64,000 nt of DNA from Candidatus Oleimmundimicrobium sp. (GCF_030651595.1 NZ_JAUSCH010000084.1:1338-65337), one strand, 5' to 3'; counted from the stretch's first letter, positions 5,944 to 64,000 are shown. The notes: generated by a model from the letters alone, not told the origin. Numbers and translations are program-made.

Positions 5944-8304
5944 TTAGCTCACCTTTCCTTCGTGTGCAAGAAACTCCCCAATGAACTTCTTTGAGTGTCC
6001 CTGAGTCTCTTCGAGTATTTCACCATAAGTTTTGCCGAAACCTTCGTGGTATTCAGCCGGATTATTTATTGCAAAGCTATAGTCTAAACCCATGAGCTCG
6101 AAGATTGTCTTTCGCATGGAGAATTCCTCATCTGAGTCATAACGGAGGATGGAATTTATGAATTCCACTCGGGCGTTGCTTTGAGGGAATTCTCCGAAGA
6201 CGTGCATGCCGTCTTGAATTTGGGTCTCTCTTAAGCGAGTTAAAACTTCGTGAGCCTGTTTGACGATTTCATCGAAGGACCCTTCTCCATGAATACCTTT
6301 TTCCTCGATCCCTATCTCTTTCTCCAATTTGGACGCCTTTATTTTGTCCACGATGAGGTGCTCCAGGGCATGAGCGCGAGCCGGATCGGTGATTTTAGCC
6401 TGGTTGTATTCGGCCAAATATCCTTCCAACTCCTTTAAGCTTTCGTAGAGACCGCTTTCGGTCATCACCGTCTGCATGTGGTCGATCAGCGTGGCGTAAC
6501 TTCTTCGCTTGGCGATGGTCCCCTCCGGCGGATTGTCGGCATTGTATATGTAGAGATGGGGAAGAGTACCGATTCCTATATCGGGATAACAGGAATCGGA
6601 AAGCCCTACCGCCTTTCCGGGCAAAAACTCCAAATTACCGTGGGTTCCCACGTGCACCACCACATCCGCTTCCCAGATCTCTTCCAGGTATCTGTAGGTG
6701 GCCAGATATTGATGGGTGGGAGGGCATTCGGGGTCGTGAAGTATCTTGCAGACCTGTCCGTCGCAGCGCGCCCCATAACACCCTCGTTTGGGTTGGACAC
6801 AGACCATAACATTTCCGTATTCTACCCCCGTGAGCACGATTTTTCCTTCATAAACCATGCCTTCACCGGGCGGCTCTCCCCAGGTGGAGGTCATTTTCTC
6901 TCTCACTTCTTCCGGCAACTTGTTCCACCACACCAGATATTTATCCAAGGAGAGGAGGGTGTGCGCCCCGCCCTTTGCAACTATCTCCTCTATGGGAGTC
7001 CATCTGAATTCGGAGATGGCTTTTCTCTCCATGATGGTCTCGATTAACTCTTTCCCGTTAGGGGGGTTTTTTTCGACCTTGTATCCTTGCTCTTTCATCT
7101 TTTGCATGATTTTAGCCACGCTTTCCAGAGTGTCCAAGTGTGCCCCACTGCCCACTGTGGCCTCCACGCTGGCGCAAGGGTTATTGTGCAGAACGAAGAC
7201 CACCTTCCGTTCTTGAGGCGGTTTTCTTCGGAGGCGCATCCATTTCTTGGCCCGCTCGACAATGTGATTGACCCGCTCCGGGATGGGCATATATTGTTCG
7301 AGAGTAACCCCGGTTTCCTCGTCGCTTGCTCTTGTTTGAACCCCGATTACCAGCGGCTCAATTATTCCATCAAATTCGGGCATGGCCACCGACCAGACTA
7401 TGTTTTCGGCAAGACCTTGAGCATCGGCTCTCCACTCCTCTTCGGTTTTGCGGTAAGAAACCAGGGGGTCAATGACCGGGACATCCAGTTTTTTAAGCAG
7501 TTCTACGCCTGCCTCCGCGCGGCCGATATCGGAACCTTCCGGCAGGGTTACCAGAAAGAAAGATTGCAAGTTGAGCAAGATATCGACGACCGATTTATCA
7601 TCTTTTGTCAGAAAAGCGGGAATTACCACATCATTTCCTTTGGCTCCCAGCTCATTTTCCTTAAAACCGTGAGAAAAGACAGGTATGATGTTGACATTCC
7701 TGTTTTCAAATTCACGAATAAGGGCATTCTCCACTTCGAGGTTTCCGTTTATCCAGTAAGAGCGATAAAAGAGGATACCCGCGGTGGGGTAGGAGGGGTC
7801 GAATTTCTTGTACCACTTAAGATAACTCTCAAGGTTGTCAAAGTGCGATGAGGCGTCGGGATGATAAATTCCCTGCCATGGCGTTTCTTGGAGCGGCTTA
7901 ACCTCCACCTCGATATCGAGAACCTCGCGGGCGATATAGGATAACAGGCTTTTCATGTTTTCCAGACCGTCGGTTACCAGATATTTATAGGCCGTGGCCA
8001 CTATCTCGGTGTTCACGGTGGAAAGACCCCAAAGAGACGGGTCGTGACCGAAAGAGACGGTGGGGGCGACCTTTCTAATTTTTTCGATTTCGGGGAGCAT
8101 CTCGCTCCAGACTTCGTTTGTGGTTGGATAAAGGAGGAGAACATCCGCCTCTTGTCGCAAATACTCCAGAAACTCTTCTCTTACCGGTTCATCCTCCAAG
8201 TCGCGCATGGAGCGGAGCTCAAGCTGTACGAAATCGAGCTCCTTGCTTGCTTGAACGAGTGTGGAAACGTGGCTTCCCCACATGATGGAGCCCACTTTTA
8301 TCAT
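5944..8304 (-). CDS. cobN: CobN/Mg-chelatase H family chelatase, N-terminal 786-aa segment
   Basis: CobN-like N-terminal region (MIKVGSIMWGSHVSTLVQASKELDFVQLELRS...). Ends at an in-frame TAA at 5944-5946, immediately followed by the continuing ORF. Confidence 0.7.
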   Translation of the reverse strand: MIKVGSIMWGSHVSTLVQASKELDFVQLELRSMRDLEDEPVREEFLEYLRQEADVLLLYPTTNEVWSEMLPEIEKIRKVAPTVSFGHDPSLWGLSTVNTEIVATAYKYLVTDGLENMKSLLSYIAREVLDIEVEVKPLQETPWQGIYHPDASSHFDNLESYLKWYKKFDPSYPTAGILFYRSYWINGNLEVENALIREFENRNVNIIPVFSHGFKENELGAKGNDVVIPAFLTKDDKSVVDILLNLQSFFLVTLPEGSDIGRAEAGVELLKKLDVPVIDPLVSYRKTEEEWRADAQGLAENIVWSVAMPEFDGIIEPLVIGVQTRASDEETGVTLEQYMPIPERVNHIVERAKKWMRLRRKPPQERKVVFVLHNNPCASVEATVGSGAHLDTLESVAKIMQKMKEQGYKVEKNPPNGKELIETIMERKAISEFRWTPIEEIVAKGGAHTLLSLDKYLVWWNKLPEEVREKMTSTWGEPPGEGMVYEGKIVLTGVEYGNVMVCVQPKRGCYGARCDGQVCKILHDPECPPTHQYLATYRYLEEIWEADVVVHVGTHGNLEFLPGKAVGLSDSCYPDIGIGTLPHLYIYNADNPPEGTIAKRRSYATLIDHMQTVMTESGLYESLKELEGYLAEYNQAKITDPARAHALEHLIVDKIKASKLEKEIGIEEKGIHGEGSFDEIVKQAHEVLTRLRETQIQDGMHVFGEFPQSNARVEFINSILRYDSDEEFSMRKTIFELMGLDYSFAINNPAEYHEGFGKTYGEILEETQGHSKKFIGEFLAHEGKVS

Positions 8305-10910: not shown

Positions 10911-12827
10911 CTATTCCATAATTTTTCTTAAACTGAATCCCAATCTTGTTCCCACCAAGGCACCCACCAAAGTGTATAAGAAGCCATCGATTACCGCGTA
11001 GGCATGAACGTACCAGGTCGTATAGTAAAGTCTGTATAAAAATATCGTGGTGCCGAAATTTATGTAAACGGAAAGGGTATCGGCCAACGCACAGGCAATT
11101 CCCACCGTGGCGAGAACACGCCATCTCTTTTCCGCGCCGATATCCGTCAGAATGCCGTTTTTCCTGGTCACGCCAAAGAGATATAGGGTGGTCTCGAGCA
11201 AAAAAATCAGAGATGCTTTCCACATGAGGGTGACGGGGCTAAAATTGCCGAGCACCACTCCCCCTAAAAGAAAACTTACACCCAAAGCGAGGGTCACCAC
11301 TCCCGGCCTGGGAATGAGGACCACAAGAGACATGATGAGAGCGTAAAGAATAATTTCATAAAAGATTCCTGTGATTAAGAAGCTAAAGGGGCCCAGGATG
11401 GCATGGAGGAAGTCCCAAAGGAGGGTGCCGGGCACATTGACCGTAATGAAAGTGGCCGTGCCAAAAAGAGCTATTATTACCAGCCATTTGGTCTTAAATC
11501 TTTTAAAAAATGCCTTTTGACAAATCATAAGATACCCAAGTCCCATCACTGTGATTAAAAAAGCTGCGAGAGTGATGAGCCCTGGGACCGGGTTTCTGGT
11601 GATGACATCGATCTCTTTTTGTTTTTTAGAGATGGCCTTGTCTGTCCCGAATATTTTAATTTCGCTCTCCAAAATATATTTACCCCCTAAGACCTCGGCC
11701 ACATCGACATAGATGGGAAAGGTTACTTTTTCTTCCGATTTCCCGGTCACCGAAACCACGGCGTAACTTACTCCCGTGCCGCCGCTTTTGGTGGAGGGAA
11801 CCCGAAAAGCCCGGGCTATCTTTTTTGTCTTGGGGTCCAGTACTTTGGATGTTACAAGAAAGACCACGTTATCTTGATTTTCATTTCTGACCGTGGTGGT
11901 GGCAAAAGCAAGAGGATGCTCGAGATAATCAATCTCTTTATCATCAGTTTTAAGTATTCTTTTTAAGAAATTGTTACCATCCACGCTTAAGGCCAGAGTA
12001 TTTTCCTTCTTACGAGAATCAAAATCTCCCTCGTCATCGGTGGGTACTTTGATTCCAGCTATATGAGCCAGGCCTTCAGCCTCTTTTAAAGAGATTACGC
12101 GCAGTTCTTTTTCTTTTTGGAACCGCGTGATTTTGTACTCGCCGTTTATCGTTTCCGCGACGGTGGCTTCTCCCCCGATTTTGTAAATGCCTGCAGCGAG
12201 AGTGGACGGCACTTCAAATTCCAGCAATTCGTTGAAGTTATCAAATTCTGTTACCAGCTTGCACTCGGCCGTGAGGATGTGACCTTCTTTTGTCTCTTTT
12301 GTCTCAAAAATTGAGGGTGTTCGAATCGGCTTGAACTCTTTAGGTAGAGTCAATTTAACGCTTGCTTGCAGGGGGTTGCCGGAGTAACTTTCTAAAAAAA
12401 CGGTGGCCGTGACCATGCTTCCTTTGACAACAAGGCTTCTCTCGTCGCTTTCCCCCGTCCCATAGGGGGCCTGAATAGAGAATTTAGCAACGGAGGTCGG
12501 CTTGGCTGGAGATTTTAACTCCTTTTCTATCATATCTCCGTTCTTGAGATTGATTTGGAATAAGTAAGACCGAGCCTCCTCCCAATCAAGAAAGAGGATG
12601 ACTTGTTTTGAGACTTCCGAATCGATGGTGGCCATGGTTATGAGCGAGCCATCCTGGTCAAAGACGCTCACCGAGGATATTGGGGTTTCCCTCGAAAGCT
12701 CAATTACGGCCCTATGGTGTCCAAACTCAATGGTTTTTATTTTTAAATCTTTCTCCTCTTTACCCCGGCAACCCGAAACCAAAAAGACAACCAGAGCTAA
12801 AATGAGGATTGTTTTGAGTTTTCTCAC
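10911..12827 (-). CDS. Large membrane lipoprotein: lipobox, about 400-aa extracytoplasmic domain, then a C-terminal block of about 6 TM helices (possible ECF substrate-capture/S-component-like protein)
   Basis: N-terminus MRKLKTILILALVVFLVSGC (lipobox). Beta-rich soluble domain. C-terminal hydrophobic helices (ITLAAFLITVMGLGYL...). Co-oriented and adjacent to EcfA/EcfT. Confidence 0.5.
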   Translation of the reverse strand: MRKLKTILILALVVFLVSGCRGKEEKDLKIKTIEFGHHRAVIELSRETPISSVSVFDQDGSLITMATIDSEVSKQVILFLDWEEARSYLFQINLKNGDMIEKELKSPAKPTSVAKFSIQAPYGTGESDERSLVVKGSMVTATVFLESYSGNPLQASVKLTLPKEFKPIRTPSIFETKETKEGHILTAECKLVTEFDNFNELLEFEVPSTLAAGIYKIGGEATVAETINGEYKITRFQKEKELRVISLKEAEGLAHIAGIKVPTDDEGDFDSRKKENTLALSVDGNNFLKRILKTDDKEIDYLEHPLAFATTTVRNENQDNVVFLVTSKVLDPKTKKIARAFRVPSTKSGGTGVSYAVVSVTGKSEEKVTFPIYVDVAEVLGGKYILESEIKIFGTDKAISKKQKEIDVITRNPVPGLITLAAFLITVMGLGYLMICQKAFFKRFKTKWLVIIALFGTATFITVNVPGTLLWDFLHAILGPFSFLITGIFYEIILYALIMSLVVLIPRPGVVTLALGVSFLLGGVVLGNFSPVTLMWKASLIFLLETTLYLFGVTRKNGILTDIGAEKRWRVLATVGIACALADTLSVYINFGTTIFLYRLYYTTWYVHAYAVIDGFLYTLVGALVGTRLGFSLRKIME

Positions 12828-12911: not shown

Positions 12912-14612
12912 CTACCTAACGAAATGGATTTTGTGATTTCCGCTTATGCTCTTATCTTCCATTTGAATCGGTGCCTCAATTGCGGCAATACTCTCTCCGT
13001 TGTTTGAAATTGTGGCAATGGCGCAGATGCCCTCCATGGGATAGAACCAGCACAATTTGTTGCTAGCGTTGCCTTCCTTTGTTAAGTCGAAGCACTGCAC
13101 GCCGGCCATGTCTTTGTTTTGACTTACCCAGTCATGAGCTACCCCAACCACCATGTATCGATTATCTTGAGAGAATAGCGGACAACCGATTTTTCCCTCG
13201 GCCTTCCATTTCCACTGAAGTTTCCCTTCGTTGGAATAGGCAAATATGGTTGTGGCGTCCGGATGAACCGCGGGCGGTGTACCGGAACATTTTGTCTTAT
13301 CCGCGGAGTAAGTGACGCTGGTGGCAAAGATGGCGTTGCCCTCATTGTCCACGTGAGTGCCGTTGCCATAGGCATAAATGGGAACCCCGCTTACCTCCTG
13401 AATCTTGGAAATTTCCTTCATCCACACGAGCTTGAGCTCGCCGGTCTCTTTTGCTTTAGTTAAGTCGAAGAGAAATCCTCTTCCATCTCCTGCCATGGCC
13501 GTGAAATGATTGCCGTCTGGAGAGATGCAGATACCATCCCAAATTCCCACGAATTTAAAGTACGGCTCCAGGGCATCGACCTTGTAGACGGCCATTTCCT
13601 TTCCGGTTTCTCCATTTAAGAGACGGACTGTGCCATCGGGATATTTTTCCTGAACCATGCCGTAGTTCCAGCTCTGATTGACGAACATCACCTTGTTTCC
13701 ATCCGGGGTGGCTACCACCTTCGGTACGCCTGTATCCATGGGTTCGTCTTCTGGGAACCGCCACTTTGTTTTGCCGGACTCCACATCAAACGCGTAGATG
13801 AAGCACTTGGTTTTGTAAACGGTTACCTCTTTGTCTTCCACCATCTTATTTTCTTTTTGTTTCAGTTGTCCCGCGGCGAAAGCCGTATCTCCTGAAACGG
13901 TCAGACTATAAATCATGGGGCGGTAGTACCAGTAGCTGTCGGTGCTCGTTCCCACGTCCTCTGATACTTTATATTTCCAAAGCTCTTCACCGGTTTTGGT
14001 GTTGAAAGCATAAAGATAACCATCGGCGCTTGCTTCGCCAGCGAGAAGTATCTCGCCGTTGCTAGAGAAAGCAACCTTTTTGCCGACTCCGTCGGGAACC
14101 TGGTAGTCCCAGAGCTTCTTTCCGGCGTTGTCGAAGACGTAGAACTTCCCGTCGAAACCCGCTATCGCGATATATTTTCCATCCGGCGAGACAATTGTTT
14201 CCTCAGAAGGGACGCCTTGCCAATCTCCTATCTGAGGAAGTTCTTCCAGGGAACCAAGTTTTGCTTCCCCGAGTTTATAGGCGGAAGGTTTCTTTGGAGA
14301 CTCGGTTTCTTGGGTTATCACGCCTTCCTCTGATTTTATTGTGATGGCGCATTTCTCATTTGGTTCCCATTCGAAGGAGGCCAGTATGGTCTTTGTGTTT
14401 GGCTGAGTGAAATCAACCTTTTTGTCGGCTACTTTAACTTCTGAGACATCGCGCGCTTCGCTTAAAACAAGAACTGCTCCCATTCTGGTAAACAGGGCCG
14501 ACTCTAATTTTGCGACATCCTTCTTTCCCGAACAGCCGCTTAGAAGGGGCATGATGAAGGCCACAGAAAGTATAATGCCGATTATTTTTGCCAATCTTTT
14601 TTTATATTTCAC
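12912..14612 (-). CDS. PQQ-like beta-propeller repeat lipoprotein
   Basis: Lipobox LLSGCSG. Recurring blade motifs (FDNAGKKLWDYQV, FNTKTGEELWKYKV, FDVESGKTKWRF, NEGKLQWKWKA). Confidence 0.7.
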   Translation of the reverse strand: MKYKKRLAKIIGIILSVAFIMPLLSGCSGKKDVAKLESALFTRMGAVLVLSEARDVSEVKVADKKVDFTQPNTKTILASFEWEPNEKCAITIKSEEGVITQETESPKKPSAYKLGEAKLGSLEELPQIGDWQGVPSEETIVSPDGKYIAIAGFDGKFYVFDNAGKKLWDYQVPDGVGKKVAFSSNGEILLAGEASADGYLYAFNTKTGEELWKYKVSEDVGTSTDSYWYYRPMIYSLTVSGDTAFAAGQLKQKENKMVEDKEVTVYKTKCFIYAFDVESGKTKWRFPEDEPMDTGVPKVVATPDGNKVMFVNQSWNYGMVQEKYPDGTVRLLNGETGKEMAVYKVDALEPYFKFVGIWDGICISPDGNHFTAMAGDGRGFLFDLTKAKETGELKLVWMKEISKIQEVSGVPIYAYGNGTHVDNEGNAIFATSVTYSADKTKCSGTPPAVHPDATTIFAYSNEGKLQWKWKAEGKIGCPLFSQDNRYMVVGVAHDWVSQNKDMAGVQCFDLTKEGNASNKLCWFYPMEGICAIATISNNGESIAAIEAPIQMEDKSISGNHKIHFVR

Positions 14613-14926
14613 GCAGATTGCGCTCCTTTCAAGTTTTTATTTACATTAACAACATTGCAAGCTTAAGTCCGAATTTAGCTTTTTGATTTTCACCTCCTTG
14701 GTAAACAAAACAGTTTTCGATAATTGTTGCCAAATAAAAAGACCACAAAAATCTCATCCAGCTTTTGAGCCGGGTAAGACCTTCGTGGCCTAATTTCGGA
14801 AAAAGTTCTAATTTACAAAGCTGCAACCTTCGGGTTGCTCTATAATAAGTTAGACAAATTAATAGCATAATTTTAAAAAGATTACAATGTTTTATTCAAC
14901 GATACTGCTTCGTCAGAATTTTTTAA

Positions 14927-16132
14927 ATGCGTGATTGGGGAGTTGAAGTGGAGAACAAAGGAAGAGATTTTTTGATTCCCGGGATAAAAAAGAACGTCTT
15001 CGTTTTAGGGTTAGTGAGCTTATTTACCGATATAAGCAGCGAGATGATATATCCTCTCGTGCCAATTTTTCTAACCAGTGTTTTGGGAGCGCCGGTTGCT
15101 GTCGTTGGTTTAATTGAGGGCGTTGCGGAGAGCACCGCGAGCATTTTGAAGACCTTCTCCGGCTGGCTTTCGGATAAATACGAGAAAAGAAAACCGTTTG
15201 TTCTGGGAGGGTATTCTCTTTCCGCTCTTGGAAAACTTCTTTTAAGCGTGGCTTTCGTCTGGCCCACGGTTTTAACGGCTCGCTTTGTGGACCGCTTGGG
15301 CAAAGGAGTTAGAACCTCAGCGAGGGATGCTCTTATTGCTGATGAAACTGATTCTATTAATCGGGGCAGAGCCTTTGGTTTTCATCGGGCGATGGATACA
15401 ACCGGCGCGGTTATCGGGCCACTAATTGTCTTAATCTTAATGGCTGTTTTAAAAGAACAATATCGATTGATTTTTTTGCTTTCTTTCTTTCCGGCTGTCT
15501 TAGGTGTTGCTCTTCTCTTTTTCTTTGTGAAAGAGAAAAAAAGACAAACTTTTAGCTCAAAAGAAGCTCCTCGTTTAAGCTTGGCCGGCTTTGACAAGAA
15601 TTTTAAAATGCTTCTTTTAATCGTGGTTGTTTTTGGGCTTGGCAACTCCAGCGATGTTTTTCTGATTTTAAGAGCAAAAAATCTAGGCCTTTCGGCTACC
15701 TTGGTTGTTTTAGCCTACGTTCTTTACAATGTAGTTTACGCATCTTTTTCGATGCCGGCCGGCATTCTTTCTGATAGGGTGGGAAGAAAAAAGCTAATGG
15801 TTGGCGGTTTTCTAATATTTTCCGGAGTTTATTTTGTCCTCGCGTTTATATCTAAATCCGTTTATATTTGGCCGCTTTTTGCCATATATGGTTTGTATAT
15901 TGCAGCCACAGAGGGTGTGAGCAGGGCTTTGGTAACTGACATGGCAGGGCCGGAGAATAAGGGTACGGCACTAGGGCTTTATCATACAGCGGTGGGGTTG
16001 GTAACATTTGCGGCCAGCTTGATTGCCGGCTTGCTCTGGACATACATTAATCCGTCGGCGCCTTTTATCTACGGCGGTTTAACATCATTATTAGCCGCAA
16101 TTTTATTTATTCTTTTTATGCCACTTGAGTAA
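14927..16132 (+). CDS. MFS transporter
   Basis: About 12 TM helices. MFS-like motif GRKKLMVGG. Confidence 0.75.
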   Translation: MRDWGVEVENKGRDFLIPGIKKNVFVLGLVSLFTDISSEMIYPLVPIFLTSVLGAPVAVVGLIEGVAESTASILKTFSGWLSDKYEKRKPFVLGGYSLSALGKLLLSVAFVWPTVLTARFVDRLGKGVRTSARDALIADETDSINRGRAFGFHRAMDTTGAVIGPLIVLILMAVLKEQYRLIFLLSFFPAVLGVALLFFFVKEKKRQTFSSKEAPRLSLAGFDKNFKMLLLIVVVFGLGNSSDVFLILRAKNLGLSATLVVLAYVLYNVVYASFSMPAGILSDRVGRKKLMVGGFLIFSGVYFVLAFISKSVYIWPLFAIYGLYIAATEGVSRALVTDMAGPENKGTALGLYHTAVGLVTFAASLIAGLLWTYINPSAPFIYGGLTSLLAAILFILFMPLE

Positions 16133-18372: not shown

Positions 18373-18847
18373 TATGGCAAATGCCTGCCCGCCTCCCCGC
18401 CTGCCTACGCCTATGATGCCGTTAGGCATTGGCGGGCAGGTGGCGGGGCAGATGGCTGATGGCAGATGGCATATAGAAAAAGAAGGGTAAAGGAAAAGTC
18501 AAAAGTCAACAAAGCTGGTGGCTTATGGCTGATAGCAGATGGCAAACAGGGTATGGAGTGTTGTAATAAGACCAGCAATCTGGCCGACAAACTACTGACT
18601 TCCCACCAAGAGACTACCGACTGATTAGTAGAGGATAAAGGGTAAAGGATTAAGCGGTAAGGATTAAGAAGCAAGTTGGAAATGTACAGGAGATTAAGTT
18701 GTGATTAGGTAGTAATTAAGTAGAGATTAAGAATAAGACCATTAATTTCAATGAATTACAATAAATTTCAATTAATTTCAAAGCAACTGAAGCCTAGTGT
18801 TTGAAGTCTGATTTATGCAAATTGTTAATGGTTAAAGGAGTGATTTT
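18373..18847. repeat. Intergenic insertion built of tandem degenerate heptamers plus a GC-rich imperfect hairpin; it separates ybaB from recR
   Basis: Heptamer runs GCAGATG GCTGATG GCAGATG, GCTTATG GCTGATA GCAGATG, GGATAAA GGGTAAA GGATTAA GCGGTAA GGATTAA, and AGTCAAA AGTCAAC. A block ccagcaatctggccgacaaactactgacttcccaccaagagactaccgactgat shares about 85% identity with 58232-58288. Confidence 0.7.
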
Positions 18848-22556: not shown

Positions 22557-22582
22557 GATATTGTTACATAAAAATGTTAAAC

Positions 22583-22620
22583 AAAACCCCCGTACTAAAT
22601 GCCGGGGGTTTTGTTTATTT
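22583..22620 (+). terminator. Rho-independent terminator after porB
   Basis: aaacccccg-tactaaatgc-cgggggttt followed by a T-run. Confidence 0.7.
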
Positions 22621-22791
22621 AAAAGACAAATTTTGTTGGATAATTAAATTATGCTTAAATTGTAAGAGACTTAAGCTCGTTGCCGATTACCACGCTTTTT
22701 TCAAACATCCAATTAAGTAATTAAGTAAAGTTGTTTTACCTCTTGCAAGTTGTTAGAATAGGATAAATCTTTAAGTAAGGTAGGTTATCTT

Positions 22792-24006: not shown

Positions 24007-24140
24007 TAGATAGCCGATAGCGTATGGCTGATGGCTAAAAACCAGTTAGAAGTCAAAAAAACAGATGGCTATTTTTTAGTTTTTTTATTTACTATTAACT
24101 GTGGACTAACAACTAAGAACTAAACCGGAGGGAAGAAAGA
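24007..24140. repeat. Heptamer-repeat intergenic element downstream of the lysC stop
   Basis: GCCGATA GCGTATG GCTGATG GCTAAAA immediately after the stop, plus an AGTCAAAAA word shared with 18.49 kb. Confidence 0.5.
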
Positions 24141-29053: not shown

Positions 29054-29196
29054 TGATAGTGGGTGGCATATGGCTGATAGCAGATGGCGAATAGCATATG
29101 GCTGATGCTTGCCCGCCGCTGGTGGGGCTCTAATGGCAGATGGCAAATAGGTAAATGAAACTCTCCACTCCCGACTAACAGAATTAAACTGGAAGG
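29054..29196. repeat. Heptamer-repeat intergenic element downstream of the HydS-GGDEF stop
   Basis: GCATATG GCTGATA GCAGATG GCGAATA GCATATG GCTGATG, then a GC-rich segment tgcccgccgctggtgggg, then GCAGATG GCAAATA. Confidence 0.6.
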
Positions 29197-50482: not shown

Positions 50483-50502
50483 CCTCAACAAATCTAAAAG
50501 GA

Positions 50503-51570
50503 ATGGGCGATATGAGCTTAAAAGATGTGGCCATTATTGGTGGAGGTGTTGCCGGCATAAGTGCGTCCTTGGTCTTAGCCGATATTGGTTTTGCGGTTCA
50601 CATAATTGAAAGGGACGTTCAACTGGGTGGGCATGCGGTAAATTTTGCCTGTAAAGCTACGGATAAATGCAGTAAGTGTCTGGTCTGTTTAGCTGACGAG
50701 CTTGTCCTAAAAGCATTTCAACATCCTAAAATAAAAGTTTTAACTGGCTCTGAGGTGACGTCTTTTTCGGGCAAATCTGGGAATTTTGAGCTGCAAATTT
50801 CTCAAGCTATCGGAGAAGAGTCGCTTTTTAAAGAACTGATATTAAAAGTTGGAGCCGTTGTTATTGCCACGGGTTTTATGCCTTTTAATGCGGAAGAGAA
50901 AAAGGAATACGGGTATGGCAAATATAAAAATGTAATTACTGCTCTGGAACTTGAGAAAGACTTGCGTCTAACCGGAAAAGTTTTGAGGCCCACCGATGGA
51001 GCAATCCCAAAGAAAATTGCTTTTTTCCAGTGCGTCGGGAGCAGAGATGAGAGTATAGGCCGGGGCTATTGTTCTAAAGTGTGTTGTCCGTATGCGCTTA
51101 GACTTTCAAAGCTCATTAAATCGGAAATTCCTGAATCGGATGTTACGATTTTTTATATGGATGTTCAACCAGCGGGCAAATGTTTTAATAAATTTCGCCA
51201 GGAGTGCGAGGAGCTTGGGATACATTTTGTGAGAAATCTGCCCTCAAAAGTTTACGGTTATGTTGATTCGGATTTTCTGCGGGTTAAAAGCTTAAGTGGT
51301 GATAAGGGCGAGGTTGTTCAAAATGAATTTGATCTCGTAGTTTTGTCTGTTGGGATGTCTCCCCAGAGCGATGCAAGGTTTTTGGCCGATACTTTTGGGG
51401 TCAGTCTCGATAGATACGGATTTTTTGAGGGACAGGGATTTCGGGTTAACCTTTCGAATGTTCCCGGAATTTTTCTTGCCGGAGCGTGTCAGGGACCGAA
51501 AGACATCGAAGAGTCAATAGTTCACGGAAAAGCAGCAGCAGTAGAAGTTGCCAGGATGTTGAGGGTGTAA
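50503..51570 (+). CDS. hdrA: HdrA-like FAD-dependent oxidoreductase (N-terminal module)
   Basis: AIIGGGVAGISASL FAD fingerprint. Cys-rich CKATDKCSKCLVC. HdrA-like. Confidence 0.65.
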   Translation: MGDMSLKDVAIIGGGVAGISASLVLADIGFAVHIIERDVQLGGHAVNFACKATDKCSKCLVCLADELVLKAFQHPKIKVLTGSEVTSFSGKSGNFELQISQAIGEESLFKELILKVGAVVIATGFMPFNAEEKKEYGYGKYKNVITALELEKDLRLTGKVLRPTDGAIPKKIAFFQCVGSRDESIGRGYCSKVCCPYALRLSKLIKSEIPESDVTIFYMDVQPAGKCFNKFRQECEELGIHFVRNLPSKVYGYVDSDFLRVKSLSGDKGEVVQNEFDLVVLSVGMSPQSDARFLADTFGVSLDRYGFFEGQGFRVNLSNVPGIFLAGACQGPKDIEESIVHGKAAAVEVARMLRV

Positions 51571-55190: not shown

Positions 55191-55448
55191 ATAAAAGGGG
55201 TCAGTCCCAGTCCTCAGCTGCCAGGAAAAATATAAGAGCAGAGAGCAGAAAATAAGGTAACGGATAAAAGGGGAAAGTCAAAAAGGGACAACTCTAAGCC
55301 GTCATTGCGAGGAGCAAGGCGACGAAGCAATCTCATAAATAGCGGATGGTTGAAAGTTAAAAGAGCATAGAATATAGCAAAAACTAGCAAACAAACCATC
55401 TAATTAACTATTAAATATCGGCTACAAACTTAGAAATGGAGTTTCTCA
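55191..55448. repeat. Intergenic element between metF and hdrC, homologous in two blocks to 58106-58260
   Basis: cagtcccagtcctcagctgccagg...agagcagagagcagaaaata and atagaatatagcaaaaactagcaaacaaacc, versus cagctcccagtcgtgagctgccagc...atagagcagagagcgagcagaatat and atagaatatagagtatagcaaaaccagcaatctggcc. Confidence 0.6.
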
Positions 55449-56872: not shown

Positions 56873-57934
56873 ATGGAATTTAAACCCAGTTGTCTCCCAA
56901 TGGCTGTTGGAAGCATGCCACATATGGATGCAGTTAAAGCATGCGAGGTAATTTTAAAATATACTCCTCAGATACCGGCATGGCCCCAACTTCCCAACCT
57001 TTCTTTTAAAGAAAACATGTGTACTCAAGTTTCAGAGGGTATGCCGGCAGTAAAAATAGATGAAGAGAAAAAGAAAATTTATCTGGACGCAGGGGACAAT
57101 TTAACTTGGAAGCTTGAGCAATTTTATGAAAAGTTCTTGGCTGAAGACCTCGACTATTTTGAAATATCTGCTGATTATGCTCGAGGGTTTCATGTCATGT
57201 TTGACACATTAAAAAAACACCTGCCAAGCAATTTAGTTATTCTTAAAGGGCAGTTAACGGGTCCAATCAGCTTTGGTTTGACGGTTACAGACCAAAATAA
57301 ACAAGCTGTTCTCTATAATGATTTTTTAAGGGATGCAATTATAAAAACACTTATGATGAAGGCCAAATGGCAGGAGAGGCAATTTAAGAAATTATCTGCC
57401 AACACAAAAACCATTATCTTTTTTGATGAACCGTATCTTCAGTCTTATGGTTCAGCTTATATAAAATTAAATAAGGATGAGGTCGTATCTTATCTAAACG
57501 AGTGTTTTTCTGCAGTTGAAGGTCTTTGTGGTGTTCATTGTTGCGGTCGAACCGACTGGAGCATTTTGATGGAAACCAATGTTAATATTATAAGTTTCGA
57601 TGCGTATGACCATACTGAAAGCGTAGCTCTTTATCCCAAAGAACTAAATAAATTTTTAAATAGAGGAGGAGTTCTTGCCTGGGGGATAGTGCCGTCTACT
57701 TATCCAACTCCGGATGCAATAGCGAAAGAGACCTTGGATAGCATTCTTAACCGGTTTGAAGAGAAAATTCAGTTATTGGTTGACAAAGGAATAGATAAAA
57801 TGAATCTTCTTGAAGCAAGCTTAATTACTCCAAACTGCGGCGCGGGCTCAATGACGGAAGAATTGGCGGAAAAGAGCATCAGATTAACTTCAGAGCTTTC
57901 TTTAGCTTTAAGAGAAAGATATTTTGGCAGATAG
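56873..57934 (+). CDS. Core-MetE-like zinc methyltransferase (cobalamin-independent methionine synthase C-terminal domain family, short form)
   Basis: GPISFGL; IIFFDEPYLQSYGS (compare IQIDEPAL); VHCCGR (His-Cys); ITPNCGAGS (compare PDCGLK). 353 aa. Confidence 0.6.
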   Translation: MEFKPSCLPMAVGSMPHMDAVKACEVILKYTPQIPAWPQLPNLSFKENMCTQVSEGMPAVKIDEEKKKIYLDAGDNLTWKLEQFYEKFLAEDLDYFEISADYARGFHVMFDTLKKHLPSNLVILKGQLTGPISFGLTVTDQNKQAVLYNDFLRDAIIKTLMMKAKWQERQFKKLSANTKTIIFFDEPYLQSYGSAYIKLNKDEVVSYLNECFSAVEGLCGVHCCGRTDWSILMETNVNIISFDAYDHTESVALYPKELNKFLNRGGVLAWGIVPSTYPTPDAIAKETLDSILNRFEEKIQLLVDKGIDKMNLLEASLITPNCGAGSMTEELAEKSIRLTSELSLALRERYFGR

Positions 57935-58374
57935 CAGATAGCAGATGGCAGATAGCAGATGGCAGATGGTTAGAGGTTGAACCCTTCTCTCCCTCCCCCT
58001 TGACGGGGGAGGGTTGGGGTGAGGGTGAAGGAGCTGATAGCTATTAGTTATTGGTCTTTATGTTTTAGTTTTTGGCTAACGGCTAAAGTTTAGGGTATAG
58101 GGTAATGGGGAAAGGGTATTCAGCTCCCAGTCGTGAGCTGCCAGCTTTCAGGGAAACTAAAAATATGAGTACGGAGCATAGAGCAGAGAGCGAGCAGAAT
58201 ATGGAGTATAGAATATAGAGTATAGCAAAACCAGCAATCTGGCCAACAAACTACCGACTCCCCACTAAGAGACTACCGACTGATGGAGCAGAGAGCCGTT
58301 AGCTATCGAAGTTACCCAGTACGGGCCAGTATCTGGTAGGGCCGGGTTATCTATCGACGAAAGCGAGGATTTAA
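57935..58374. repeat. 440-bp intergenic element: (GCAGATR)x6 tandem heptamers starting inside the last codons of the upstream gene, a 9-bp perfect GC hairpin, and blocks homologous to 18.56 kb and 55.2 kb
   Basis: gcagata gcagata gcagatg gcagata gcagatg gcagatg at 57928-57969. ccctccccc-ttgac-gggggaggg at 57991-58013. GARTATA x4 near 58200. ccagcaatctggccaacaaactaccgactccccactaagagactaccgactgat matches 18563-18617. Confidence 0.75.
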
Positions 58375-62772: not shown

Positions 62773-64000
62773 ATGCCTAAGATAAGTTTGACGATTAATG
62801 GCAAAAAAGTTGTGTCCGAATCGGGCCAAACTATACTTGAGGTTGCTAAGGAAAATGGCATAAGAATTCCTACTCTTTGCCATGATCCGAGACTTAAGCC
62901 CTATGGGGCTTGCCGGGTTTGTCTTGTCGAAGTCGAGGGGGCAAGAAATTTTTTGCCTGCTTGTGCAACTAAAGTTACAGATGGAATGGTTGTAAATACA
63001 GACACGATTCCGCTTTATGAAATAAGAAGAACCATAGTTGAGCTGCTTCTTTCTGATCATGAACTAAGTTGCATAACGTGTGAAAGCGCAGGCCAGTGTC
63101 AGCTTCAAGATTTGGCTTATGAGTTGGGGATAGAAGAGAATCGTTTTAAGGGAGAAAAACATGCTTATACCGTCGAGGATTATAATCCTTTAATTGAGAG
63201 GGATTTAAATAAATGCATCCTCTGTGGTCGTTGTGTTCGTATCTGTGAAGAGGTTCAACAGAATAAGATATATACCTTTGCGAATCGAGGATTCGATACC
63301 ATAGTTACAACTCCTTATGACAGGTCGCTTATTGAAACAAAATGCGAGCTTTGCGGACAGTGCGTATCTACGTGTCCAACAGGAGCCTTAACTGAGAAGA
63401 TGAGCAGGTATAAGGGGCGAATTTGGGAGATAGAAAAAGTAAAGACAATTTGCCCTTACTGTGGTTGCGGTTGTGAACTTGAGCTTCAGGTTAAAGATGG
63501 TGAAATAGTTCGTGTCTCAGCTGATGTCGAAAGCGGAGCGAATAAGGGAAATACTTGCGTAAAAGGCCGTTTTGGTTATGATTTTGTGAATCACTCTGAT
63601 AGACTCACCTCCCCTCTAATCCGAAAAGACGGGAAGCTGGTAGAAACATCTTGGGATGAGGTCATACGGACTGTTGCAAACAAATTTTCTGAGATTAAAA
63701 AGAAGCACGGCCCCGACGCAATTGCTGGTCTTTCCTCAGCAAAGTGTACCAATGAAGAAAATTATCTGATGCAGAAGTTTATGAGGGCGGTGATTGGCAC
63801 AAACAATATCGACCATTGTGCCCGGTTGTGACACGCTCCAACGGTGGCCGGTCTGGTCAAAGCATTTGGAAGCGGAGCGATGACAAATTCTATCGCCGAT
63901 ATACACGAAGCTGATGTAATTTTAGTTATCGGTTCAAATACTACGGAAAACCATCCGGTAATTGCTCTTGAGATGAAGAGGGCGGTATCTGATTTTGCCA
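62773..64000 (+). CDS. fdhA: Formate dehydrogenase catalytic subunit, selenocysteine-containing (UGA at 63832-63834), continuing past the window end
   Basis: 2Fe-2S, 4Fe-4S and CPYCGCGC motifs. [20 protein letters not shown] matches FdhF VDCCARV-U-HGPSVAGL. The frame stays open to the window end after the TGA. Confidence 0.85.

Follow-up and report, generated by a model that had tools for sequence, protein, structure and literature searches.

What kind of DNA fills a gap of 440 nt inside an operon of the Wood-Ljungdahl (carbon-fixation) pathway, and how did it come to be there? The gap (positions 57935-58374) separates a MetE-like gene from a CooC-like gene in Candidatus Oleimmundimicrobium, an uncultured genus of the Actinomycetota (Ca. 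Aquicultoria); none of the papers in the collection searched names the genus. All positions refer to the window, i.e. the whole stretch of 64,000 nt that was analysed. The genes of the operon are ordered as follows: MetV/MetF, HdrC/B-like proteins, a 353-aa MetE/URO-D-like protein, the spacer, a CooC-type ATPase, a NuoE-like ferredoxin and a pterin-binding methyltransferase. An in-frame stop suspected in the HdrA-like region (50483-51485) was dismissed, the ORF 50512-51570 being intact. The comparison covered six genomes and about 210 kb (the 64-kb window plus about 150 kb of related loci), and the spacer region was reproduced by two independent Logan assemblies of other sequencing runs. A sequence-only reading had described the spacer as the largest intergenic element and as a dispersed mosaic, possibly MITE-like or a structured ncRNA family. 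In size it ranks second, because the spacer at 18373-18847 is longer (475 nt). A scan for tRNA and tmRNA genes returned none.

The unifying feature of the spacer, overlooked by that reading, is tandem repetition with a period of 7 nt over nearly its entire length. The self-identity of 57935-58374 at a lag of 7 nt was 0.47, against 0.27 ± 0.02 in 2000 local shuffles (z 9.7). The period spans 57925 to about 58300 and does not extend into the final ~75 nt, the leader of the CooC-like gene. Three period-7 arrays were called within the spacer by Tandem Repeats Finder (57925-57969, 58091-58119 and 58196-58225); the first and the last of these correspond to the six GCAGATR units, with the stop of the MetE-like ORF among them, and to the four GARTATA units that had been proposed by eye. 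When the chain is read in register its units change gradually, from GCAGATR (six copies) through T-rich and G-tract units to the GAGCAGA/GAGTATA and finally the ACTACCG/ACTCCCC types (Table 1). The T-rich units, designated M5b, read GCTGATA GCTATTA GTTATTG GTCTTTA TGTTTTA GTTTTTG GCTAACG GCTAAAG; they are 92.6% identical to positions 11075-11128 of the related sequence L013, in the orthologous spacer, and are also present in L005. Arrays with four G-tracts similar to 58089-58116 were found in L013 (8295-8319) and L017 (11099-11123). The non-repetitive leader (58310-58374) is the only part of the spacer that can be aligned across all congeners, its last 39 nt being 79% identical to L013.

Table 1. 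Coordinates of the MetE-like/CooC-like spacer, its components and related features of the window.
Feature	Position	Strand	Description
ybaB-recR spacer	18373-18847	+	M1 (18384-18451), GGCWGAT arrays, M3 (18568-18625), GGATTAA and 10-mer arrays
RGCNGAT heptamer array	24007-24036	+	Immediately after the lysC stop
ACTAACA-type heptamers	24105-24125	+	Before the asd Shine-Dalgarno
Miniature of the spacer layout	29065-29181	+	After the HydA-GGDEF gene: array, small GC palindrome, array, ACTCTCC/ACTCCCG heptamers
metF to hdrC-like spacer	55191-55448	+	Degenerate colinear relatives of 58120-58250; lag-7 identity 0.39
MetE-like ORF	56873-57934	+	Ends ...TAT TTT GGC AGA TAG within the heptamer array
Heptamer array TGGCAGA/GCAGATR	57925-57969	+	Period 7, 6.4 copies, 89% matches (Tandem Repeats Finder)
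TAG stop of MetE-like gene	57932-57934	+	Inside the heptamer array, with the last codons of the gene
GC-rich hairpin module M5	57980-58026	+	About 19 pairs, -34.4 kcal/mol, z -2.5
Perfect 9-bp hairpin core	57991-58013	+	CCCTCCCCC-TTGAC-GGGGGAGGG
G-quadruplex-type motif	58005-58025	+	GGGGGAGGGTTGGGGTGAGGG; overlaps the 3' arm of the M5 hairpin; from motif scan
Degenerate T-rich heptamers M5b	58033-58088	+	In register by lag-7 map
G-tract heptamers	58089-58116	+	TTTAGGG TATAGGG TAATGGG GAAAGGG; four G-tracts, canonical quadruplex motif
Small hairpin CAGCTC-N8-GAGCTG	58121-58140	+	z -1.5, not significant; weak similarity to 55202-55225
Purine-rich heptamer arrays	58173-58225	+	GAGCAGA and GAGTATA/GAATATA types, within the 156-nt block 58154-58309
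GARTATA-type array	58196-58225	+	Period 7, 4.3 copies (Tandem Repeats Finder)
Module M3	58227-58284	+	CCAG-CAAT-CTGG mini-hairpin, then C-rich G-poor stretch; ACTACCGACT twice, 22 nt apart
Tail of the 156-nt shared block	58285-58309	+	GGAGCAGAGAGCCGTTAGCTATCGA
Leader of CooC-like gene	58310-58374	+	Non-repetitive, Shine-Dalgarno GAGGA; no period 7

Period 7 recurs in the other co-directional spacers of this group of genomes that were compared. Lag-7 identity reached 0.37-0.53 in all 15 co-directional spacers examined from four related genomes, vs 0.23-0.33 at other lags; the value for coding DNA was 0.23-0.26. Neither the divergent gap 14613-14926 nor the terminator-bearing gap 22557-22791 gave a period-7 signal. 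The host junctions are classical operon junctions (ybaB-recR, lysC-asd, argG-argH, acsB-acsC and metF-hdrC). The G-C skew of the spacers is +0.36 in their first third vs +0.14 later, and C-rich, G-poor ACTNNNN units tend to sit just 5' of the next Shine-Dalgarno. The possibility that the arrays serve as a three-frame stop device was rejected: one reading frame has no stop for 36 codons downstream of the MetE-like gene, and downstream of ybaB the open run is 13-38 codons.

The arrays are interrupted by GC-rich palindromes. The perfect 9-bp hairpin of the earlier reading was recovered at its place, and its stem was found to extend over the whole of M5. The M5 hairpin was detected at two loci of the surveyed sequence, M5/M5b together being present in the window, L005 and L013, and the M1 palindrome (fold z -3.6 in the window) at three loci (window, L004 and L005). 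In L005 the base of the M5 stem carries a C>T / G>A double change. A join mediated by repeats, with the end of contig JAUWKI010000004, may have produced the 3' tail of L005, and L005 was therefore not counted as an independent M5 locus. Two quadruplex motifs were found in the spacer, where 0.014 were expected from shuffles (P 0.0002).

Other parts of the spacer are shared with further gaps. The block of about 55 bp thought to match 18563-18617 proved to be module M3: 58227-58284 is 91% identical to 18568-18625 over 58 nt, and the similarity extends to about 100 nt at 77% (E 1e-15). Full-length matches to M3 numbered 10 (97-99 bits) and represent 7 non-redundant loci in four genomes, with partial copies besides. 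A sequence-only model of M3 returned 20 matches in the 211 kb surveyed, i.e. about 15 loci once redundancy is removed; of these 15 copies, 14 lie in the same orientation as the genes. The 22-nt core of the module (CCCCACTAAGAGACTACCGACT) was found in six genomes with 0-3 mismatches. M3 exists as two subtypes plus recombinants between them, and is near-invariant across loci and species; neutral turnover does not account for this near-invariance. When 24 nt of the shared block were used to scan a genome collection, the only further matches came from two MAGs labelled Actinomycetota; a metagenome scan with the 5' half of M3 retrieved only copies of one of these, the SpSt-lineage genome, and four chance matches in an integrase gene. 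A spurious 87-aa ORF that spans the repeats gave no matches in a protein search.

Modules also change place. The 156-nt block 58154-58309, which includes M3, is 89% identical to L013 1907-2056; the L013 copy sits in another gap of this operon, acsB/acsC, and the acsB/acsC gap of the window (104 nt) has no such block. An AT-rich module, M7, occupies four gaps of three genomes and is absent from the window. The matches reported to 55200-55250 and 55360-55400, both within 55191-55448, proved colinear but weak (82% over 34 nt, E 0.08; 73% over 45 nt, E 0.03), and the M3 sequence model does not detect these blocks. The idea of a dispersed mosaic, as opposed to random spacer DNA, is supported, its blocks also turning up in gene gaps elsewhere in the window and in five related genomes. 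Contigs break inside the modules: L001 and L002 both end at 58257, within M3, CSMAG contig 4 ends 115 nt past the MetE-like stop, L024 and L025 end inside M1, and L027-L030 begin inside M3 or an array. Short-read contigs repeatedly end in modules, and therefore further copies are to be expected in each genome. For short-read assembly the modules have a practical consequence: they fragment these MAGs and may produce chimeric joins.

Comparison of strains revealed hypervariable copy number. The array at 57925-57969 has 6 copies in the window, and 7 and 4 in two samples with flanks of 99.9-100% identity: L001 differs from the window by 6 mismatches and has 1 heptamer more, while L002 has 0 mismatches in 4371 nt and 2 heptamers fewer. 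This length variation is real, since the reads must contain the k-mers concerned. Small palindromes come and go on the same scale. The ybaB-recR spacer of L023 (flanks 99.8% identical to the window) has 2 more heptamers and 1 fewer decamer, and this strain has no counterpart of the 45-nt palindrome 18396-18440, which the window carries inside the loop of a simpler hairpin; L022, too, has the simple form. Among species, the conserved ...YFG codons of the MetE-like gene run straight into an array in all four congeners, and this array supplies or abuts the stop. The congener arrays differ in units and lengths, and downstream everything differs but the last ~35 nt before the CooC start. In the outgroup L031 (62% protein identity, 55% GC) the MetE-like stop is directly followed by the cooC ATG, and the operon gaps show no period 7; the spacer is therefore derived, having expanded at a junction that was once tight. 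Its repeats form a family that changes fast and is specific to the lineage.

One spacer behaves differently. The ybaB-recR spacer of the window is 96.8% identical (360 of 372 aligned nt) to that of a CSMAG_2342-like species, with differences that are mainly repeat-unit indels, although the flanking coding sequences are 80% identical and their third codon positions 57%. Assembly chimerism was rejected as a cause, five independent assemblies being in agreement. The corresponding gap is unrelated in four other congeners. The identity reflects either strong constraint in both species or a recent cross-species replacement; pure slippage and neutral turnover do not account for it.

Tandem heptamers close to the ends of genes were recognised in cyanobacteria in 1990 and in Xanthomonas and giant sulfur bacteria afterwards, and they have no assigned function. 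The G-rich heptamers of Xanthomonas (GGGAATC) and Nostoc (GGGGA(C/T)T) are over-represented between aligned ORFs, are conserved in position and vary in length and sequence between species, are mostly transcribed, are not tied to mobile elements and have no known function (Rehm et al., 2015; PMC4692102). The cyanobacterial STRR heptamers are cited in the same paper (Mazel et al., 1990). TAACTGA heptamers occur just upstream of start codons in Beggiatoaceae, Cyanobacteria and Bacteroidetes, and binders of the S1, Csp or CsrA type were suggested for them (MacGregor, 2015; PMC4679880); as cited there, heptamers are the commonest long simple repeats of prokaryotes and possibly arise by polymerase slippage (Mrazek et al., 2007).

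The best reading places the present spacer with the intergenic heptameric repeats of Xanthomonas and Nostoc. Shared with that class are tandem 7-nt units on the coding strand between co-directional ORFs, a position overlapping the stop or within 50 bp of it (57932-57934, lysC, HydA-GGDEF and the four congeners), occupation of the same gene pairs in relatives with differing lengths and sequences, and independence from gene functions and insertion sequences. The GGGTAWA units at 58089-58116 supply exactly four G-tracts, a predicted quadruplex motif. In contrast, the dominant unit GGCAGAT has only GG, short of a G-tract of at least 3; several unit types follow one another in fixed order, interleaved with palindromes and with the conserved non-repetitive M3; and the host is an uncultured anaerobic actinobacterium. 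With the STRR and TAACTGA repeats the spacer has in common tandem intergenic heptamers and a sporadic phylogenetic distribution, and ACTNNNN units lie closely upstream of start codons here as well (24105-24125 and 29160-29181; also L015 and L017), TAACTGA being ACTGATA in another register. The units themselves differ (GGCAGAT, GGGTAWA, GAGTATA and ACTNCCN, not TAACTGA, CCCCAGT, TTGGTCA or CAACAGT), arrays here fill whole spacers, whereas TAACTGA occurs in sets of 2-6 copies, and there is no evidence linking the lineages. REP/BIME sequences of enterobacteria and BOX elements of pneumococci are GC-rich imperfect palindromes that lie 3' of stops in operons as variable mosaics; the copy number of their internal modules varies, and they are thought to affect mRNA stability and translation of neighbouring cistrons. 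M1 and M5 are likewise extragenic GC-rich imperfect palindromes in mosaics, as in REP/BIME/REPIN; no REP consensus was found, and tandem heptamers are not a BIME feature.

Four other explanations were weighed against slippage-driven growth. If the modules were non-autonomous mobile elements (MITEs, or REP/REPIN-like sequences moved in trans by a RAYT or an IS200/IS605-type enzyme), with the arrays secondary, one could understand why non-orthologous copies are 89-97% identical across species whose proteins are about 80% identical, why contigs break inside modules in several independent assemblies, and why M7 recurs in four gaps. The strain-variable 45-nt palindrome, with imperfect 10-nt inverted ends and no target duplication, is what single-strand 'peel and paste' insertion would leave. 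The modules are also short, non-coding, dispersed and assembly-breaking, as MITEs are. Yet neither M3 nor the 156-nt block is bounded by inverted repeats, the ends vary from copy to copy, M3 subtypes have recombined, and all but one of the 15 copies share a single orientation relative to transcription. Apart from internal hairpins, an inverted-repeat scan detected only a 10-nt pair at 58075/58294, which was rejected as terminal repeats, the boundaries of the shared block lying elsewhere. Target-site duplications were found neither at the 45-nt indel nor at the hairpin-module indel relative to L013, which is bounded by heptamer units; the plasmid and phage collections held nothing similar to the spacer sequences, and the gene tables listed no transposase near any copy. 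The MITE-like description is accordingly not upheld, and mobility of this kind is considered unlikely. It is very unlikely that the hairpin is an intrinsic terminator and the rest of the spacer the promoter region of cooC. A stable GC hairpin does stand 45 nt past the stop, with T-rich heptamers about 20 nt after it, but the M5 stem is not followed by a T-run, and the promoter/terminator scan of the spacer gave no terminator (0 sites) and no sense-strand promoter. The genome uses canonical hairpin and T-run terminators elsewhere (22583-22620 in the window), L013 has no M5 hairpin at the MetE-like/CooC junction, and in the outgroup the two genes abut, as co-transcription would predict.

A structured ncRNA or cis-regulatory RNA (a leader, a riboswitch-like element, or an sRNA family with the M3 core) would fit the near-invariance of M3, the conservation of the ybaB-recR spacer far above that of its flanking genes, and two hairpin-arm changes that are G-U compatible on the sense strand only. 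Against it, M3 is no better folded than shuffles as sense RNA (z +0.77; antisense z -1.5, not significant), and the covariance check that had been suggested across copies yielded a consensus fold of -8.7 kcal/mol with one covarying pair. The RNA fold of the whole spacer is not significant (z -1.25). Rfam gave 0 matches in the window at gathering thresholds, and permissive scans, which included both large spacers, returned only chance-level hairpins. The element is missing from the orthologous gap in sister species, and the genes downstream of its copies (recR, cooC, argH, acsC) are functionally unrelated. The folded-RNA reading is thus largely refuted, and the ncRNA family of the sequence-only reading appears highly improbable. 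That the arrays are neutral by-products of slippage in dispensable DNA, their order being devoid of function, is judged rather unlikely. It agrees with the hypervariable copy number, with the whole replacement of spacers between congeners, with the outgroup having no spacer and with the fact that no function has been found for the comparable repeats of Xanthomonas and Nostoc. It agrees less well with the consistent orientation, with a 5'→3' unit order that holds across loci and species, with an array kept exactly at the stop codon in four species, and with the conservation of M3 and of one whole spacer far above synonymous-site identity.

The explanation that we favour, and hold as a whole to be fairly probable, is that of a slippage-driven heptameric spacer with REP/BIME-like hairpin modules, either neutral at the RNA level or with a modest role there. 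The spacer has grown from a junction originally without a gap, and its units follow one another 5'→3' as the GGCAGAT type at or over the stop, the G-tract units, the purine-rich GAGCAGA/GAGTATA units and the C-rich ACTNCCN units before the next ribosome-binding site, with the GC palindrome M5 interrupting the arrays and the dispersed module M3 (about 75-100 nt) carried along. Copy number shifts by slippage on a strain-level timescale. The flanking heptamer arrays, shared between gaps, would let modules be copied from one gap into another by recombination or template switching, not by transposition. Probably transcribed within the operon mRNA, the spacer may act as a decoupling spacer at the RNA level: the hairpin, and possibly G-tract structures too, would protect the 3' side of the upstream cistron, and the unstructured C/A-rich stretch would form an open leader for the downstream cistron. 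Such a decoupling role would resemble that of REP/BIME in enteric operons. Our confidence in any specific function of the spacer is much lower.

A more speculative proposal, which we rate as quite unlikely, is that the arrays and M3 together form a sequence-specific platform that sets the relative expression of neighbouring cistrons, and that whole spacers are exchanged between species. A protein whose footprint is 7 nt, for example an RNA binder of the cold-shock-domain or S1 type, could coat the in-register units, or these could be folded into G-quadruplexes. If this were true, exchange of spacers between species would explain why 400 nt of non-coding DNA are ~97% identical despite saturated synonymous sites; the spacers would then represent regulatory DNA of a new class, internal to operons and transferable, and would offer a way into the 35-year-old question of the role of heptamer repeats in bacteria.

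An unrelated, uncultured lineage, an acetogenic-type member of the Actinomycetota, is added to the hosts of heptamer repeats. Three timescales are visible side by side at related loci: copy number among strains, module turnover among species and, at the level of the clade, the birth of a spacer from a zero-length junction. With its strict orientation and order of repeats, this comparative series can help to tell mutation bias and selection apart.

Within the spacer between the MetE-like and CooC genes, the G-tract arrays and the dispersed module M3 are bracketed by a perfect 10-nt inverted pair (GCTAACGGCT / AGCCGTTAGC, separation 209 nt). About 0.1 such perfect pairs would be expected by chance in a region of equal size, and the boundaries of the block shared with L013, a locus from a related genome, do not match the pair. 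The coordinates of all features are specified in the table.

Features of the window and their counterparts (L-numbers denote loci or contigs from related genomes or other assemblies)
Feature	Window	Other loci
10-nt inverted pair	58075-58084 and 58294-58303	
ybaB-recR spacer	18373-18847	L004 6103-6481; L026; L027-L030
45-nt palindrome	18396-18440	L023, junction 1832-1833
Motif GTCATTGCGAGGAGCAAGGCGACGAAGCAATCTC	55301-55334	L003 about 6950-6990, minus strand
AT-rich module		L004 715-737; L013 8399-8421; L022 5818-5840 and 11587-11609; also L017 about 11130-11260
Overlapping contig ends, CSMAG_2342		L005 3960-4172; L015 11090-11174
Strand switch	about 14600-14930	
FdhA-like ORF	62773-63831	
In-frame TGA	63829-63831	L013 16788-16790 (TGC)

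The ybaB-recR spacer was 96.8% identical between two species, for which the flanking coding DNA was ~80% identical (57% at third codon positions). Unrelated sequence occupied the ybaB-recR gap of four further congeners. In this spacer, a simpler hairpin (CCTGCCCGCC-TCT-GGCGGGGCA) holds a 45-nt palindrome nested in its loop. The window strain carries the palindrome; the close strain L023, whose flanks are 99.8% identical, lacks it, and no target duplication was found at this indel. Two further contigs end inside the palindrome. In the MAG CSMAG_2342, two contig ends overlap via repeat modules; at its 3' tail, contig 24 may have been misjoined, through these repeats, with the contig 4 spacer that separates the MetE-like and CooC genes.

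Three related genomes carry, in differing operon gaps, a dispersed AT-rich module of roughly 150-200 nt that begins with AATGAAAAATGGAGAATGAAAAA and has loosely inverted ends. The window has no copy of this module and contains nothing that makes as good a MITE candidate. Separately, the motif GTCATTGCGAGGAGCAAGGCGACGAAGCAATCTC was found again in a second genome; it resembles a short repeat widespread in other phyla, where it appears as spurious '...CEERSDEAIS...' peptides.

Gene orientation and GC skew both change sign at one place in the window (skew about -0.05 before, +0.15 to +0.29 after), which could be a replication-related strand switch. Because the two switch together, repeat orientation relative to replication and relative to transcription are inseparable within the window.

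At the window end, an ORF encoding an FdhA-like molybdopterin enzyme terminates at an in-frame TGA, aligned to a TGC (Cys) codon in L013, where the gene is a single 898-aa ORF. This TGA very probably encodes selenocysteine, with the FdhA-like gene running on past it to the window end.
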